NCBI GenBank assembly: GCA_043816345.1
Contig: JBDRIA010000064.1
Location: 9,759 to 73,758, forward strand
Origin: Chloroflexota bacterium
GTDB taxonomy: Bacteria; Chloroflexota; Dehalococcoidia; Lucifugimonadales; UBA2985
Reading direction: 5' to 3'
Length of the DNA stretch: 64,000 nt
Shown here: one piece after another, positions 31,150 to 37,170 of the stretch
Numbering within the stretch: the stretch's first letter is position 1
Layout: every line of letters starts with the position of its first letter
Position numbers and translations under genes: made by a program
The notes under the pieces: model-generated
What the model was told of the DNA's origin: nothing
The model's input: only the letters and a program-made list of their open reading frames with translations
The model's database searches: none

Positions 31150-32031
31150 ATGGTTTCACAGAGAAACGAGGCTAAGATAGTAGGGGCAGCCCTGGTAGTG
31201 GGTGGTGGCATCGCGGGAATGCAGGCCGCTCTGGACCTGGCCGAGTCGGATATACAGGTCTATCTGCTGGAGAAGTCCCCCTGGATTGGCGGGCGCATGG
31301 CCCAGCTGGACAAGACCTTTCCCACCAACGACTGCGCCATGTGCATCATGGCACCCCGGCTGGTGGAGTGCTCCCGTCATCACAACATCGAGATCATCAG
31401 CAATGCCGACCTGGTGAAGCTCACCGGCCAGGCCGGAGACTTCACCGCCACCATCCGCAGGCGCGCCCGACACGTGGACGAGGAGAAGTGCACCGGCTGT
31501 GAGGAGTGCACCCTGAACTGCCCAGTACAATACATACCCTACAGTTCGCCGGTGGAGGTGGCCGAGCCAGAGATCACGCCAGAGGACAGGGAAAAGGTCG
31601 ACCAGTTCCTAGACCAGTATAAATACAAGAGAGCACCCCTGATTCCGGTGCTCCAGGGCATCAACGCCTGGTACAACTACCTGCCTCCTGAGACGCTTTA
31701 CTACGTCAGCCGCCGCTTGGGAATCCCCTTGGCCCACATCCTCCGGGTGGCCACCTTCTACGCCCTGTTCAGCCTCAAACCCCGTGGTAAGCACGTTATC
31801 TCGGTATGTCACGGTACCGCCTGTTTCGTACGCGGCGCCGAAAGGCTTACGGACAGATTGCAGGAGGAGCTAGGCATCGGTATTGGCGAGGTAACCGAGG
31901 ACGGTGAGTTCAGCCTGGAGACGGTGCGCTGTATTGGCTGCTGCGCCCTGGCCCCGGTGATGAAGGTGGGTGAAGAAGTCCACGGGAAATTGCATCCTAA
32001 GGAAGTAACCACGGTCTTGAAGGGACATTGA
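31150..32031 (+). CDS. Chimeric protein: first ~125 aa of the HdrA FAD-binding domain fused to a NuoE-type [2Fe-2S] domain
   Basis: [49 protein letters not shown]...[18 protein letters not shown] (the start of HdrA), then [17 protein letters not shown]...[31 protein letters not shown]...[10 protein letters not shown] (NuoE). Confidence 0.85.
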   Translation: [293 protein letters not shown]

Positions 32032-32032
32032 C

Positions 32033-33915: not shown

Positions 33916-36900
33916 ATGGTCAGGTTCACTATAGACGGGCGCGAGGTTGAGGCGGAGTCGGGTAGGACTATCCTTGAGGTCGCCAGCGCCCAGGGTATCA
34001 ACATACCAACACTGTGCTATCACAAGGGCCTCCTCCCGGAGGGAGCCTGCCGGTTGTGCGTGGTGGAGATCGCCGGGAGGTCCAGGCTAAGCGCCTCCTG
34101 TAGCTATCCTGTGGAGGAGGGAATAGAGGTAAAGACCGACTCCCCACGGGTGGTCAAGGCGCGCCGGCTGGTGGCTGAGATGCTCTGCCTGCGATGTCCC
34201 GAGGTGCCCCGCGTCCAGGAACTGGCGCGGGAGTTTGGCGCCGACGAGGCCAGGCTCAAGCGGTTCACTCCCGACAACGAAACTTGTATCCTATGTGGCC
34301 TGTGCATCCGCATATGCAAGGAGCGGATGGGGGTCAACGCCATTGACTTCGTCAACCGCGGCTCAACGCGCAAGGTGAGCCCTCCCTTCGACCGATTCTC
34401 TCCCATTTGCCTTACCTGCGGGGCCTGCGTCTCCGTCTGTCCCCTGTCCACCCACGAGCTTTCAGGGATCACCGATAGGGAGCTCAGGCCCATCCTTTCG
34501 GAGCACGACGCCGGGCTGGCCCAGCGTGGCTCCATCTACATCTCGTTTGCCCAGGCCATACCCAAGGTCCCGGTCATTGATAGGGACACCTGCCTCTATT
34601 TCCAGCGGGGCTCTTGCAAGACCTGCGAGGCCTTCTGCGGTCCCGGAGCCATCAACTACGACCAGAAGGACGAGATGATGGATGTAGGCGTTGGAGCGGT
34701 TATCCTTGCCCCTGGCAGCGACGTGTACGACGCCGGGCTCTCCGAGGAGTTCGGCTTCGGGCGGTACCCCAACGTGGTCACCAGCCTCCAGTTCGAGCGG
34801 CTCCTCAGCGCGGCCGGGCCTACCCAGGGCCACATTCTACGCACTTCGGACGCTGAGGAGCCCAGAAGGATTGCCTGGCTCCAGTGCATTGGCTCTCGGG
34901 ACCAGGAGCACTCGTACTGCTCGGCGGTGTGTTGCATGTACGCCACCAAGGAGGCGACACTGGCCAGGGAGCACCTGTCCCCCGATGCCGAACTTTCCGT
35001 CTTCCTCATGGACCTGCGGGCTTTCGGCAAGGGGTTTGACGCTTACTTCCGGCGCGCTCAGGAGCAGGGCATCCGGTACGTCCACTGCCGCGCCTCCGCT
35101 CTGAAAGAGTTGCCCAGTAGCAAGAACCTGGAGTTCCAGTACGAAGACGAAACGGGGGAGCTACTCACCGAGGAGTTCGACATGGTGGTACTCTCCGTTG
35201 GGCTTACTGCTCCCAAGGGCGTGGAGGAGCTTGCCTCCGTTGCGGGGGTGAATCTGGACGATTTTGGCTTCGGCGCCGCCTTGCCTGCGACGCCCCTGGA
35301 GACGGCTCGCCCGGGCGTCTACATGGGTGGGGCCTTCCGTGGGCCCAAGGATATCCCAGATTCGGTAATGGAAGCCAGCGGAGCCGCGGGCGAGGTGCAG
35401 AGACTCCTTGCCCCGGTTCGCGGAACCCTGGTCAGGCCAAGGGAGTTTCCACCGGAGCTACCCCTGGATGGCCAGGAGCCACGGGTGGGCGTCTTCGTGT
35501 GCCACTGCGGCTCCAATATTGCCGGGGTAATTGATGTGGCAGAGGTGGCACGCTTTGCCAGCGAGCTTCCCCACGTGGTCTACACCGACCACGTTATGTT
35601 TGCCTGCTCCACGGATTCCCTCAAGGCCATGTGCGATGCCATCGCCGAGCACCGCCTGAACCGCGTGGTAGTGGCGAGCTGCACTCCCCGCACCCACGAG
35701 CCTCTGTTTCAGGAGAACATCCGGGAGGCGGGGCTGAACCCCTATCTGTTCGAGATGGCTAACATACGCGATCAGTGTAGCTGGGTGCATGGCGATGTTC
35801 CCGAGGAGGCCACGGCAAAGGCCAAAATGCTGGTGGCCATGGCGGTATCCCGTGCCTGCCATCTTGAACCGCTATACCAGCTTTCCCAGGGGCTAAGCAA
35901 TCATGCCCTGGTGGTGGGCGGCGGCGTGTCCGGAGTAACGGCGGCCCTCTCCCTGGCCGAGCAGGGCTTTCCCGTTTCCCTGGTGGAGCGGGAACCCCAG
36001 CTTGGGGGCCTGCTGTTAGAGCACGACACCCTGACCTCTGGCTTGAACAGCCGTGAGCTGGTATCCCAGCTCCTGGAGCGGGTGCAAGCCAACGACAACA
36101 TCGAGGTCCTGACCGATTGCGAGGTGGTGAAGTTCATAGGTTTCGTGGGCAACTTCAAGACCACGGTGGCCAGCCGCGGCGATCCGACCCAGCGCCTCAT
36201 TGAGCATGGCGTTATCATCATCGCCACCGGCGGCCGGGAGTACCGTGGGGACGACTACCTGCTTGGCCAGCACCCCGCGGCAATGACCATGGGCGACCTG
36301 GAGAAGGCGTTTCAGGCCGACGACTCAAGGCTGAGGCAGGCGAAGCGCATCGTGATCATCCAGTGTGTTGGACCGTGGGAGGAGCAGCCCTTCTACTGTA
36401 GTCGTGTCTGCTGTACCGTTACCATGAAGAACGTCCTCAAGCTCAAGGAGTTGAATCCCTCCTGCCAGGTGTTCGTACTGTACAAGGACATTCGCACCTA
36501 CGGCACCCGAGAAGAGATGTACACCGAAGCCAGGCAATCAGGGGCCATCTTCGTGCGCTACTCCGATGAGGATCTGCCGATTGTGCAACCGGCGGGAGAG
36601 GTGATTGAGGTCTCTTTCACGGAGCCGAGCCTGAAGGAGCGGTTCACGCTTACTGCCGACCTTCTGGTCTCCTCCACGGCTATAGTGCCCTCGAAGGGGG
36701 CCGAGGAGCTGAGCAAGGTCTTCAAGGTACCTCAGACCCAGGAAGGGTTCTTCCAGGAGGCCCACAGCAAGCTGCGCCCGGTGGACTTCGCCTCGGACGG
36801 TGCTTTCCTGTGCGGCGTGACCCACTACCCCAAGTCCGTGGAGGAGGCCATGATCCAGGGGAAGGCGGCCGCCGCCCGGGCCAGCCGGATCATCGGCAAG

Positions 36901-37170
36901 GACGAGTTGATGGTGGGCGGGGTGGTGGCAAGCGTTGATGAGGAGAAGTGCACGGCCTGTCTCACCTGTGTGCGTATCTGTCCCTACAATGTGCCCATCA
37001 TCAGCGGCGACGTGGCCGTCATTGAGGCCGCCGCTTGCCAGGGATGCGGACTATGCGCTGGCGAATGTCCGGCCAAGGCCATCCAACTGCTCCACTATAG
37101 GGACGATCAGGTGCTGATAAAAATAGAGGGAATGGCAGAGCTAATAGCGACGGGAGGTGTGACGGTATGA
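33916..37170 (+). CDS. hdrA: Chimeric protein: NuoG/HydA-type N-terminus, then the remainder of an HdrA unit, then a second complete HdrA unit
   Basis: aa 1-200: [2Fe-2S] (TLCYHKG..GACRLC) plus two 4Fe-4S motifs. From about aa 205: IYISFAQAIPKVPVIDRDTC..., GPTQGHILR, WLQCIGSRD, YCSAVCCMYATKEA and DLRAFGKG. Then VFVCHCGSNIAG...ASCTPRTHE, LVVGGGVSGVTAAL and the C-terminal ferredoxin CTACLTCVRICP / CQGCGLCAGECP. Confidence 0.9.
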   Translation: MVRFTIDGREVEAESGRTILEVASAQGINIPTLCYHKGLLPEGACRLCVVEIAGRSRLSASCSYPVEEGIEVKTDSPRVVKARRLVAEMLCLRCPEVPRVQELAREFGADEARLKRFTPDNETCILCGLCIRICKERMGVNAIDFVNRGSTRKVSPPFDRFSPICLTCGACVSVCPLSTHELSGITDRELRPILSEHDAGLAQRGSIYISFAQAIPKVPVIDRDTCLYFQRGSCKTCEAFCGPGAINYDQKDEMMDVGVGAVILAPGSDVYDAGLSEEFGFGRYPNVVTSLQFERLLSAAGPTQGHILRTSDAEEPRRIAWLQCIGSRDQEHSYCSAVCCMYATKEATLAREHLSPDAELSVFLMDLRAFGKGFDAYFRRAQEQGIRYVHCRASALKELPSSKNLEFQYEDETGELLTEEFDMVVLSVGLTAPKGVEELASVAGVNLDDFGFGAALPATPLETARPGVYMGGAFRGPKDIPDSVMEASGAAGEVQRLLAPVRGTLVRPREFPPELPLDGQEPRVGVFVCHCGSNIAGVIDVAEVARFASELPHVVYTDHVMFACSTDSLKAMCDAIAEHRLNRVVVASCTPRTHEPLFQENIREAGLNPYLFEMANIRDQCSWVHGDVPEEATAKAKMLVAMAVSRACHLEPLYQLSQGLSNHALVVGGGVSGVTAALSLAEQGFPVSLVEREPQLGGLLLEHDTLTSGLNSRELVSQLLERVQANDNIEVLTDCEVVKFIGFVGNFKTTVASRGDPTQRLIEHGVIIIATGGREYRGDDYLLGQHPAAMTMGDLEKAFQADDSRLRQAKRIVIIQCVGPWEEQPFYCSRVCCTVTMKNVLKLKELNPSCQVFVLYKDIRTYGTREEMYTEARQSGAIFVRYSDEDLPIVQPAGEVIEVSFTEPSLKERFTLTADLLVSSTAIVPSKGAEELSKVFKVPQTQEGFFQEAHSKLRPVDFASDGAFLCGVTHYPKSVEEAMIQGKAAAARASRIIGKDELMVGGVVASVDEEKCTACLTCVRICPYNVPIISGDVAVIEAAACQGCGLCAGECPAKAIQLLHYRDDQVLIKIEGMAELIATGGVTV

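Follow-up and report, generated by a model that had tools for sequence, protein, structure and literature searches.

An in-frame cassette of predicted HydABC/Bfu type cuts hdrA in two within a putative Wood-Ljungdahl gene cluster of a Chloroflexota bacterium

We analyzed a 64,000-nucleotide stretch of DNA, here called the window, from a Chloroflexota bacterium (GTDB lineage Bacteria; Chloroflexota; Dehalococcoidia; Lucifugimonadales; UBA2985; NCBI GenBank assembly GCA_043816345.1, contig JBDRIA010000064.1, positions 9,759 to 73,758 of the forward strand). In this window hdrA, which encodes the flavin adenine dinucleotide (FAD)-binding HdrA of heterodisulfide reductase (Hdr)-type complexes, is cut in two by an in-frame, three-gene cassette of 3 kb. 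The genes are tightly packed on one strand (+) between positions 31150 and 40677, in the order hdrA'::bfuC, bfuB, bfuA::hdrA, mvhD, metV, metF, hdrC, hdrB. Three open reading frames (ORFs) make up the split region. ORF1 (31150..32031; 293 amino acids [aa]) combines an HdrA N-fragment with a [2Fe-2S] domain of the BfuC/HydC/NuoE type, according to profile, structure, and alignment matches. ORF2 (32033..33904; 623 aa) is a HydB/BfuB-type subunit, as judged by its domains and its alignment with 7t2r_B. ORF3 (33916..37170; 1084 aa) joins a BfuA-like N terminus to the rest of a first HdrA unit (unit A) and to a second one (unit B). They are followed by mvhD (FlpD family; 37167..37604), the start of which overlaps the ORF3 stop codon, metV (DUF5981/methylenetetrahydrofolate reductase [MTHFR] C-terminal domain; 37601..38272), metF (MTHFR family; 38269..39222), hdrC (2x[4Fe-4S]; 39230..39796), and hdrB, with two CCG domains (NCCGATC and DCCGASF; 39793..40677). 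Adjacent genes nearly touch (32031/32033 and 33904/33916) or overlap (ATGA at 37167-37170).

The two parts of unit A are complementary. In ORF1, the HdrA 5' fragment (aa 1-130; 31150..31539) is joined by a linker of ~16 aa to the thioredoxin-fold [2Fe-2S] domain (aa 147-293; 31588..32031), which was identified by domain matches. A profile search placed ORF1 aa 4-128 at positions 132-257 of the NCBIfam HdrA2 profile, and aa 11-127 aligned with residues 143-259 of the solved HdrA 5odc_A. The 3' fragment of unit A in ORF3 (aa 195-510; 34498..35445) was delimited by the same profile, 5odc_A, and alignments: ORF3 aa 195-499 match profile positions 259-561 and 5odc_A residues 262-496. The gap between the end of HdrA in ORF1 and its resumption in ORF3 is thus no more than two profile positions (257 and 259). 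The GxGxxG Rossmann start of unit A is in ORF1 (aa 15-52; Pfam FAD/NAD_binding matches), and the sole Rossmann start of ORF3 (aa 664-700) is part of unit B (aa 520-1084; 35473..37170), which was recognized by domain and structure matches and by alignment. When ORF1 aa 1-135 and ORF3 aa 186-1084 were joined, the product was 80% identical, over 1,017 columns, to P0124, an unsplit HdrA of 1,020 aa; the 5' fragment itself is 86% identical to P0124 residues 9-126. By these comparisons, the split and its complementarity lie far beyond chance.

P0124 is encoded at locus L087 in a Dehalococcoidia metagenome-assembled genome. The operon there reads acsB, acsD, acsC, RACo, cooC, acsE, hdrA (unsplit), mvhD, metV, metF, hdrC, hdrB, DUF166, fhs. 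Window positions 24638-43520 are collinear with L087 at 78-89% DNA identity except at two places: the window's RACo has lost 1,452 bp in frame, and positions 31500-34531 replace 71 bp. The cassette bounded by this DNA comparison (31500..34531) thus measures 3,032 bp where L087 has 71 bp (8354-8424), and its flanks are 78-82% identical to those of L087.

A preliminary description of this DNA, made from the letters alone, had proposed that an in-frame three-gene cassette splits hdrA, and the ORF coordinates, the complementary profile ranges, and the unsplit L087 agree. Its view of ORF1 as the start of an HdrA FAD domain followed by a complete NuoE-type domain is borne out by the HdrA2 match (132-257) and the Pfam match (E, 1e-47), and the 5odc_A alignment confirms that unit A has no second Rossmann start in ORF3. 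The complementary fragments and their joint identity to P0124 imply that two polypeptides have to come together to build the first FAD domain. HdrA was also said to resume in ORF3 where ORF1 stops, at about aa 205; the profile positions uphold the resumption, whereas that residue corresponds to the DNA breakpoint and protein homology begins at ~aa 195.

By alignment, the cut falls within the inserted 2x[4Fe-4S] ferredoxin domain of HdrA, between its two predicted Cys motifs. The first motif, C114-x2-C117-x2-C120-x3-C124-P, closes the HdrA part of ORF1. ORF3 resumes with a segment that runs from SEHDAGL to DRDTC226 and on to C234-x2-C237-x3-C241, the second motif. Both motifs are contiguous in P0124 and are on two polypeptides in the window. 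Each cluster of a two-cluster ferredoxin fold is bound by three ligands of one motif and a fourth of the other, so both clusters of the split domain would bridge ORF1 and ORF3. We infer that both are shared between the two polypeptides and that the two HdrA fragments reassemble into one thioredoxin reductase (TrxR)-like domain sharing an FAD. A third cluster may be involved, as ORF1 Cys62 and Cys65 correspond to Cys194 and Cys197 of 5odc_A (offset 132; numbering counted on the alignment). Cys197 is described as a residue of one HdrA that serves as a ligand to the partner's N-domain cluster (PMC9012536), and the N-domain cluster is here very probably shared across polypeptides through ORF1 Cys65. 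The sharing would thus extend beyond the FAD fold to which the preliminary description had confined it, to both clusters of the inserted domain and very probably to the N-domain cluster.

Unit A contains the Cys pair as well as the inserted ferredoxin domain, but neither the N-domain nor a C-terminal ferredoxin domain. Unit B has an N-terminal cluster domain (ORF3 aa 520-650, equivalent to 5odc residues 2-130; aa 520-753 correspond to residues 2-236), its own GxGxxG, and a C-terminal 2x[4Fe-4S] ferredoxin domain; the inserted ferredoxin domain and the Cys194/197 pair are absent from it. It is therefore not the second complete HdrA unit that it had been taken for. Because units A and B are complementary, ORF1 and ORF3 together constitute a self-complementary pseudo-heterodimer, of the same kind as the fused HdrAs of anaerobic methanotrophic (ANME) archaea and BamE. 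The domain comparison thus shows HdrA as a tandem, self-complementary pseudo-dimer. The Cys residues of the TrxR-domain cluster are present in both units, as C324/335/339/340 with K345 in unit A and as C817/828/832/833 with K838 in unit B. K345 and K838 align with K409 of 5odc_A, which we take to be the lysine beside flavin N5. All Fe-S ligands on both sides of the cut, as well as K345 and K838, are invariant among the aligned homologues (18 of ORF1 and 24 of ORF3).

We modeled the joined unit A fragments with AlphaFold. With a 90-row alignment, the model reached a predicted template modeling score (pTM) of 0.73 and a predicted local distance difference test score (pLDDT) of 77-97 over the TrxR core, and it superposed on solved HdrA chains with template modeling (TM) scores of 0.76-0.77 over ~449 of 470 columns; run with no alignment, the joined fragments gave a mean pLDDT of 31. 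The ferredoxin domain and the cofactor loop were modeled with low confidence, as expected in a model lacking cofactors and with few sequences covering the N-fragment. Given this shallow coverage, the model is informative for the TrxR core and not for the split ferredoxin domain.

The inserted genes had been described as a NuoEFG-type NADH module. Their predicted link to NAD(H) stands, and an assignment to complex I or to a plain NADH dehydrogenase does not. ORF1 aa 147-291 form a full 2Fe-2S_thioredx/NuoE/HydC domain (Pfam E, 1e-47; 8a6t_C E, 7e-41; 7t2r_C E, 3e-40), with C220, C225, C261, and C265 invariant in 18 homologues. Over its residues 6-591, ORF2 aligned gap-free with residues 5-590 of 7t2r_B, the BfuB subunit of the electron-bifurcating NiFe-HydABCSL (E, 8e-251). 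Complex I NuoF chains span only ORF2 residues 119-531, so ORF2 carries an extra N-terminal [2Fe-2S] domain and an extra C-terminal 2x[4Fe-4S] domain, which are the defining traits of HydB/BfuB. Its Pfam domains, at aa 4-82, 160-331, 442-526, and 543-593, are in that order a thioredoxin-like [2Fe-2S] domain, a flavin mononucleotide (FMN)/NAD(H) 51K domain, NADH_4Fe-4S, and a 2x[4Fe-4S] ferredoxin.

The N terminus of ORF3 (aa 1-180; 33916..34455) consists of Fer2_4 and 2x[4Fe-4S] domains of the NuoG/HoxU/BfuA type, with ligands C34, C45, C48, and C62 for the [2Fe-2S] cluster and C124/127/130/134 and C165/168/171/175 for the two [4Fe-4S] clusters. Its best solved match was a 247-aa BfuA-like chain, 9mqx_A (residues 4-179 against 7-182, ungapped; E, 3e-36). 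Matches to NuoG and HydA required a deletion of ~25 residues at the site of the His-ligated cluster, and inspection of the BfuA-like domain of ORF3 found no H-x3-C-x2-C-x5-C motif. Type-2 BfuA has the A1 [2Fe-2S] and two [4Fe-4S] clusters and lacks A3 and A5 (Schut et al. 2022, PMC9304861). By its motifs, the N terminus of ORF3 is a predicted type-2 BfuA, and by its domain architecture the cassette is a predicted HydABC/Bfu-type module. Identity with complex I NuoEFG was rejected: the NuoF and NuoG matches are partial, ORF2 has the additional Fe-S domains, and the likeness to NuoG is limited to the first ~180 aa of ORF3. No nuoA-N membrane genes were found among the annotated window ORFs.

The BfuB architecture and the type-2 BfuA lead us to expect that the module handles ferredoxin as well as NAD(H). 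It would then be a second bifurcation or confurcation site, beyond a plain NADH dehydrogenase. Type 2 Bfu enzymes (PMC9304861; 7t2r, 9mqx) resemble the window in the cofactor architecture of BfuB and BfuC and in the clusters of BfuA. In those parts of the survey that describe them, BfuA and BfuC stand alone or occur with catalytic domains, whereas in the window each is fused to half an HdrA domain. The searched text and one supplementary file of the Bfu survey yielded no Hdr- or MetF-linked Bfu type other than Bam-Bfu.

Both fusions recur in other organisms. Among the best 120 clusters (90% identity) in each search, 119 hold both the HdrA fragment and the NuoE domain of ORF1, and 114 hold the BfuA N terminus of ORF3. 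The four-gene unit hdrA'-bfuC, bfuB, bfuA-hdrA, mvhD occurs at at least 25 genome loci and on 4 further contigs, in at least 12 phyla, archaea included; the underlying scan covered species-representative genomes with HdrA-specific patterns and gives examples rather than counts. The order hdrA'-bfuC, bfuB, bfuA-hdrA''-hdrA, usually followed by mvhD, is kept at all 25 loci. Among the matches listed, full-length ORF1-type genes belong to Eubacteriales, Desulfobacterota, Acidobacteriota, Ignavibacteriota (Melioribacter), Latescibacterota, and Spirochaetota, and also to Planctomycetota, Fibrobacterota, Cloacimonadota, Dehalococcoidia, Thermoplasmata, Altiarchaeales, and others. About 8-10 full-length fusion clusters were found among the top matches to 50%-identity representatives, a search in which the E-value counts are mixed with plain HdrA and NuoE matches. 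So few clusters indicate that the family is compact in sequence though taxonomically broad.

This distribution bears on whether the layout is an artefact. The metagenome-assembled source, and the RACo deletion relative to L087, could point to misassembly or to a disrupted, nonfunctional hdrA, since some decay or assembly collapse is possible in such DNA. The recurrence of both fusions in independent assemblies from many sources rules out misassembly of the split, and the invariant ligands and intact, tightly coupled reading frames leave artefact or decay as a whole with almost no credibility. The split layout is real and common in nature, and it lies within the known HdrA-based and Bfu-based bifurcating systems, forming no new category.

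Several members of the family vary in their parts. The ORF1-family variants P0014, P0243, P0244, P0246, and P0247 (418-436 aa) have ~130 extra N-terminal residues. This extension fits the HdrA N-terminal cluster domain in size and position, and the partition of domains may vary by lineage. At L085 (12857-16057), the ORF3 equivalent is called as three genes (184, 311, and 561 aa), flanked by Mvh hydrogenase genes, and the ORF1 homologue (P0008) is 66% identical to ORF1 of the window; the three genes could reflect further fission or frameshifts. BfuB is ~1,065 aa long at L083 (10872-14072), L084 (11373-14564), L003, L007, L013, and L020, where a fused GltD-like tail (Fer4_20 plus Pyr_redox_2) gives the unit one more NAD(P)H/flavin site. 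Genes for PHP domain, DRTGG, CBS, and HATPase proteins lie between bfuB and bfuA-hdrA at L004 (13146-15933) and L084 (14561-17397). Genes of this kind occur near HydABC hydrogenase operons and hence may encode regulators.

Related Chloroflexota hold a natural allelic series at the position of the cassette: no insert (L087), an NfnB-like insert (P0125-P0128 and L088), and the Bfu cassette (the window and L086). L086, a second Chloroflexota contig, has the split layout followed by mvhD-metV-metF-hdrC-hdrB. In P0125-P0128 and at L088 (2849-7324), a GltD/NfnB-like NAD(P)H module of ~450-500 aa is inserted in frame in the same ferredoxin domain of hdrA, and mvhD-metV-metF-hdrC follow downstream as they do in the window. 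The HdrA parts of the window are 74-87% identical to the unsplit P0123 and P0124, 65-81% identical to NfnB-type relatives (where the N-terminal part is present), and 47-67% identical to other split-type proteins. The NuoE part (at most 81% identity) and the BfuA part (76%) have matches in proteins whose HdrA parts are only 47-64% identical. These mosaic identities support grafting of the cassette. On the simplest reading, a cassette edged by pieces coding for the ferredoxin domain would have recombined into a resident, unsplit MetFV-type hdrA.

The surrounding operon, which comprises an NAD-type formate dehydrogenase with a predicted selenocysteine (Sec), cooS, acsB, acsD, acsC, a RACo remnant, cooC, acsE, the Hdr cluster, DUF166, and fhs, is by gene content a predicted Wood-Ljungdahl cluster. 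In an alignment, the in-frame TGA of mvhD (37218-37220) falls on the conserved Cys of a CNWC motif present in 18 homologues, locus L010 has a TGA of its own at this position, and the codon is predicted to be read as Sec. The ORF annotation and this alignment agree with the gene order first given for the locus, mvhD(Sec), metV, metF, hdrC, hdrB. A GC-rich hairpin directly after the TGA (37218-37275), a candidate selenocysteine insertion sequence (SECIS), has a folding energy no better than that of shuffled sequences (z = 0.2), and so gives no independent evidence for a SECIS element.

Other genes of the window touch on this context. Upstream (16756-21141), a NuoE/NuoF-fusion-like protein of 512 aa is followed by the formate dehydrogenase alpha subunit, which is read through an in-frame TGA (19510-19512) in the motif CART-U-HAPTVAGL; with mvhD, this makes two selenoproteins in one operon. 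The DUF166 gene (40738-41544) matches the model "DUF166 (seleno)protein DfsP." The gene for the corrinoid activase RACo (28854-29375; compare L087 4225-6201) is down to 173 aa, which include the beginning of the N-terminal [2Fe-2S] ferredoxin and the final ~120 aa of the ASKHA domain; the missing 1,452 bp (L087 4383-5834) represent either a real internal deletion or an assembly collapse. Farther away are dnaA (515-1990, - strand), near the window start, and a DNA methylase gene followed by one for a BsaWI-type restriction endonuclease (6977-9006, + strand). The best Pfam match of the methylase is N6_N4_Mtase, and it has an unusual "Dev_Cell_Death" domain match.

The closest characterized counterpart is the MetFV-HdrABC-MvhD enzyme of Moorella thermoacetica ("6S type"; Mock et al. 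2014, as summarized in PMC5861303 and PMC8515935). It has six subunits, including a two-FAD HdrA, and it was purified as one hexameric complex, the second acceptor of which is not known (PMC8515935). All six Moorella-type genes, namely, metF, metV, an hdrA with two FAD units, hdrB, hdrC, and mvhD, are present in the window, and the window operon contains no other hdrA for MetFV. The gene products and the Wood-Ljungdahl context are those of the Moorella type, and the hdrA-mvhD-metVF-hdrCB layout occurs in other bacteria and in L087. By comparison with descriptions of that type, the window differs in that unit A is split by a Bfu cassette with FMN/NAD(H) and ferredoxin sites and in that MvhD contains a predicted Sec.

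We consider it probable, from the gene order and the analogy to Moorella, that ORF1-3 with MvhD, HdrC, HdrB, MetV, and MetF form one obligate cytoplasmic complex in which the Bfu module sits on the HdrA ferredoxin arm. Such an enzyme would be a Moorella-type methylenetetrahydrofolate (methylene-THF) reductase in which the HdrA arm that interacts with ferredoxin is joined covalently to a HydABC/Bfu-type NAD(H)/ferredoxin module, with the BfuA cluster chain set beside the arm by which methanogen HdrA reduces free ferredoxin. Electrons would pass from the NAD(H)/FMN and ferredoxin sites on BfuBC through the BfuA clusters and the split ferredoxin domain to the HdrA flavin. From the flavin, one arm would lead to MetV/MetF (methylene-THF/methyl-THF, ~-200 mV) by way of the C-terminal ferredoxin domain and MvhD(Sec), and the other through the TrxR-domain cluster and HdrC/HdrB to a thiol/disulfide or another acceptor. 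The methylene-THF step would thereby be coupled to NAD(H) and ferredoxin through two bifurcation or confurcation sites in series.

The placement of Bfu on this arm is suggested by covalent proximity to the halves of the split domain, as BfuC begins ~20 residues past Cys motif 1 and the last BfuA cluster motif ends ~50 residues before motif 2, and by the NfnB-type allele, which puts a pyridine-nucleotide module in the same place. At L083 and L085, genes for the Mvh small and large subunits come after mvhD. They represent the canonical input arm, which leaves the ferredoxin-domain arm for Bfu. Because mvhD is followed by metV-metF in the window, MetFV would replace the hydrogenase on the MvhD arm, with HdrCB on the TrxR-cluster arm. 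The methanogen MvhADG-HdrABC complex (5odc) shares the domain logic, ligands, and arms of HdrA, and its HdrA forms a homodimer in which each subunit is complete and free ferredoxin is reduced by the inserted ferredoxin domain; the window would instead have an asymmetric pseudo-dimer in which Bfu occupies that domain. A more far-reaching claim is that the split ferredoxin domain is both an intersubunit 2x[4Fe-4S] junction and the port from MetFV-Hdr to its soluble partner, and that it defines a double-bifurcating "Bfu-Hdr" class. We put this forward tentatively and regard it as somewhat more doubtful than credible.

The neighborhoods of the unit in other genomes bear on whether it works with MetFV at all. 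At 13 of 28 loci, it is within 10 kb of Mvh-type [NiFe] hydrogenase genes; metVF neighbors are less frequent. L015 and L024 have an unsplit, divergent hdrA-mvhD-metV-metF-hdrC and, directly downstream, a split hdrA'/bfu unit with its own mvhD, and L024 additionally has NiFe hydrogenase genes. L084 (7321-8652 and 911-1339) and L016 have GcvH-like lipoyl-carrier domains, either fused to HdrC or encoded close by. On a Thermoplasmata contig (L001, 1495-6565), genes for LplA, LarA, and a GlcD-like dehydrogenase lie beside hdrCB, with the split unit downstream. In some members, the partner reaction may thus be that of a lipoyl-protein disulfide or the oxidation of lactate. The window has nothing of this kind, and a search there found neither GcvH nor LplA.

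Such neighborhoods are what one would expect if the unit were a generic redox-balancing oxidoreductase between NAD(H)/ferredoxin and a disulfide (or a hydrogenase), cotranscribed with metFV in the window and not binding MetFV: it mostly occurs with no metFV, nearly half of the loci have Mvh-type hydrogenase genes nearby, one has the LarA, GlcD-like, and LplA genes and two have GcvH genes, and at L015 and L024 metVF adjoins a second, unsplit hdrA. We nevertheless judge this explanation improbable. In the window, at L010 (Desulfobacteraceae), and at L086, the split unit is followed by mvhD, metV, and metF with overlapping genes; the syntenic, unsplit L087 has the Moorella-type hdrA-mvhD-metVF-hdrCB order, and the Moorella enzyme was purified as one hexamer; and MetFV would have no other HdrA from the window operon. 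The NAD(H)-linked MetFV-HdrABC-MvhD supercomplex of the preliminary description accordingly survives as the natural reading of this operon, whereas the four-gene unit as such is not specific to MetFV.

A different wiring is suggested by the class II benzoyl-coenzyme A reductase (BCRII) BamBCDEFGHI (bioRxiv 10.64898/2026.04.10.717634), which is described as having two bifurcation modules in series in one complex; the coexistence of two such modules is called unreported before. Like the window, BCRII combines HydBC-like subunits (BamGHI), a fused HdrA dimer with two TrxR domains (BamE), a Sec-containing MvhD-like protein (BamF), and an HdrBC-like subunit. Its BamG, BamI, and BamE are separate, unsplit polypeptides, and its inserted ferredoxin domain is the output to the tungsten-containing BamBC; in the window, compared by description, the Bfu subunits are fused to the halves of that domain and the partner is MetFV. 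No Bam proteins were found among the solved-structure matches of the window proteins. That BCRII holds a HydBC-like module together with a fused HdrA dimer in one complex supports the supercomplex by precedent.

In a BCRII-like series wiring, Bfu would confurcate NADH and reduced ferredoxin, and the resulting electrons at ~-400 mV would reach the HdrA flavin by way of the C-terminal ferredoxin domain and MvhD. The split domain would then serve as no more than a structural tether, or as the low-potential output, and MetFV would be on the high-potential arm. The cryo-electron microscopy structure of BCRII, which traces a path from BamI (the BfuA equivalent) through the C-terminal ferredoxin domain and BamF(Sec) to the bifurcating FAD with the inserted ferredoxin domain as output, speaks for this arrangement, as do the Sec of the window MvhD, which parallels Sec19 of BamF, and the classical proposal of NADH as mid-potential donor and methylene-THF as high-potential acceptor. 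It is harder to reconcile with the covalent position of BfuA ~50 residues from half 2, and of BfuC ~20 residues from half 1, of the inserted ferredoxin domain, with the NAD(P)H module that the NfnB-like allele carries in that domain, and with the genes that adjoin mvhD in relatives, which are those of Mvh hydrogenases or metV rather than bfu genes. We therefore consider this wiring unlikely, though a more serious contender than the generic oxidoreductase.

Several points count against placing Bfu on the split ferredoxin arm of a complex with MetFV. In the solved analogue, the HydBC-like module feeds HdrA via the C-terminal ferredoxin domain and the MvhD-like adaptor (bioRxiv 10.64898/2026.04.10.717634). 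The split ferredoxin region (residues 116-170 of the joined construct) was modeled at a pLDDT of <50, and the K409-aligned lysine is kept in both TrxR units, so either FAD could bifurcate. With the canonical HdrA ports, the MvhD arm would have to serve a couple at ~-200 mV, which is awkward in thermodynamic terms. The proposal assigns no substrate to HdrB, which retains both CCG motifs. Finally, what suggests an electron path from BfuA into the split domain is covalent proximity, and we infer the association with MetFV from the operon structure and the Moorella precedent.

Parts of this arrangement have been noticed before. In Dethiosulfatarculus, Desulfobacterales, and Chloroflexi, Yi et al. 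2021 (PMC8515935) noted that genes for NuoEFG homologues precede metFV. They called this "X type" MTHFR unstudied and widespread among Desulfobacterales and Chloroflexi, and they speculated that it bifurcates. This gene neighborhood fits the window (Chloroflexota) and L010 (Desulfobacteraceae). The passages of that paper on the X type give the neighborhood only and contain nothing on HdrA fragments fused to "NuoE" or "NuoG," a split ferredoxin domain, or MvhD/HdrBC. "nuoEFGmvhD" units of D. phosphitoxidans are listed in its 2013 genome paper, and the Desulfatiglans genome paper treats HdrABC-MvhD and NuoEFG as separate complexes. For ANME-1 HdrA9-11, Chadwick et al. 2022 (PMC9012536) described an NfnB-like insertion in the inserted ferredoxin domain, "potentially giving 2 electron bifurcation sites," and also tandem or fused HdrAs with complementary N-domain and Cys197. 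An insertion of the same kind is present in Chloroflexota P0125-P0128 at the site of the window cassette. The ANME-1 insertion is one in-frame domain in one polypeptide, whereas in the window three genes of an unrelated lineage (NuoEFG/HydABC) turn hdrA into two genes. A description of the hdrA split itself was not found in the searchable literature, a body that excludes the HdrA-module review of Appel et al. 2021. The earlier statement that known clusters lack such a module is therefore true in part only, given the X type, the nuoEFGmvhD units, and the ANME-1 insertions.

The subject at issue is energy conservation by acetogens and other Wood-Ljungdahl organisms at methylene-THF reductase, where the donor and the second acceptor of MetFV-HdrABC-MvhD are in question. 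The cassette probably hard-wires two energy-coupling machines to this enzyme. Because the three alleles (plain, NfnB-like insert, and Bfu split) are found in near-identical operons and differ at one site, the HdrA ferredoxin domain, the question of which port exchanges electrons with which carrier is open to direct comparison. Piecemeal annotation of the parts as "NuoE," "NuoF," "2Fe-2S protein," and "HdrA" leads reconstructions, among them those in the Desulfatiglans and D. phosphitoxidans papers, to treat the unit as two separate complexes. The interest of the locus lies in the ferredoxin/FAD domain that spans polypeptides, in the breadth of a family hidden by annotation, and in the three-allele comparison. 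If the proteins form one complex, it would be a second, far commoner case, after BCRII, of two bifurcation modules in one enzyme, with an unusual ferredoxin fold and an FAD domain assembled across two polypeptides. If the ferredoxin domain is indeed the port, this would name the redox partner of the Moorella-type methylene-THF reductase, a gap that dates from 2014, and a widespread, unnamed double-bifurcating "Bfu-Hdr" class, mostly coupled to Mvh hydrogenases in relatives, would come into view.

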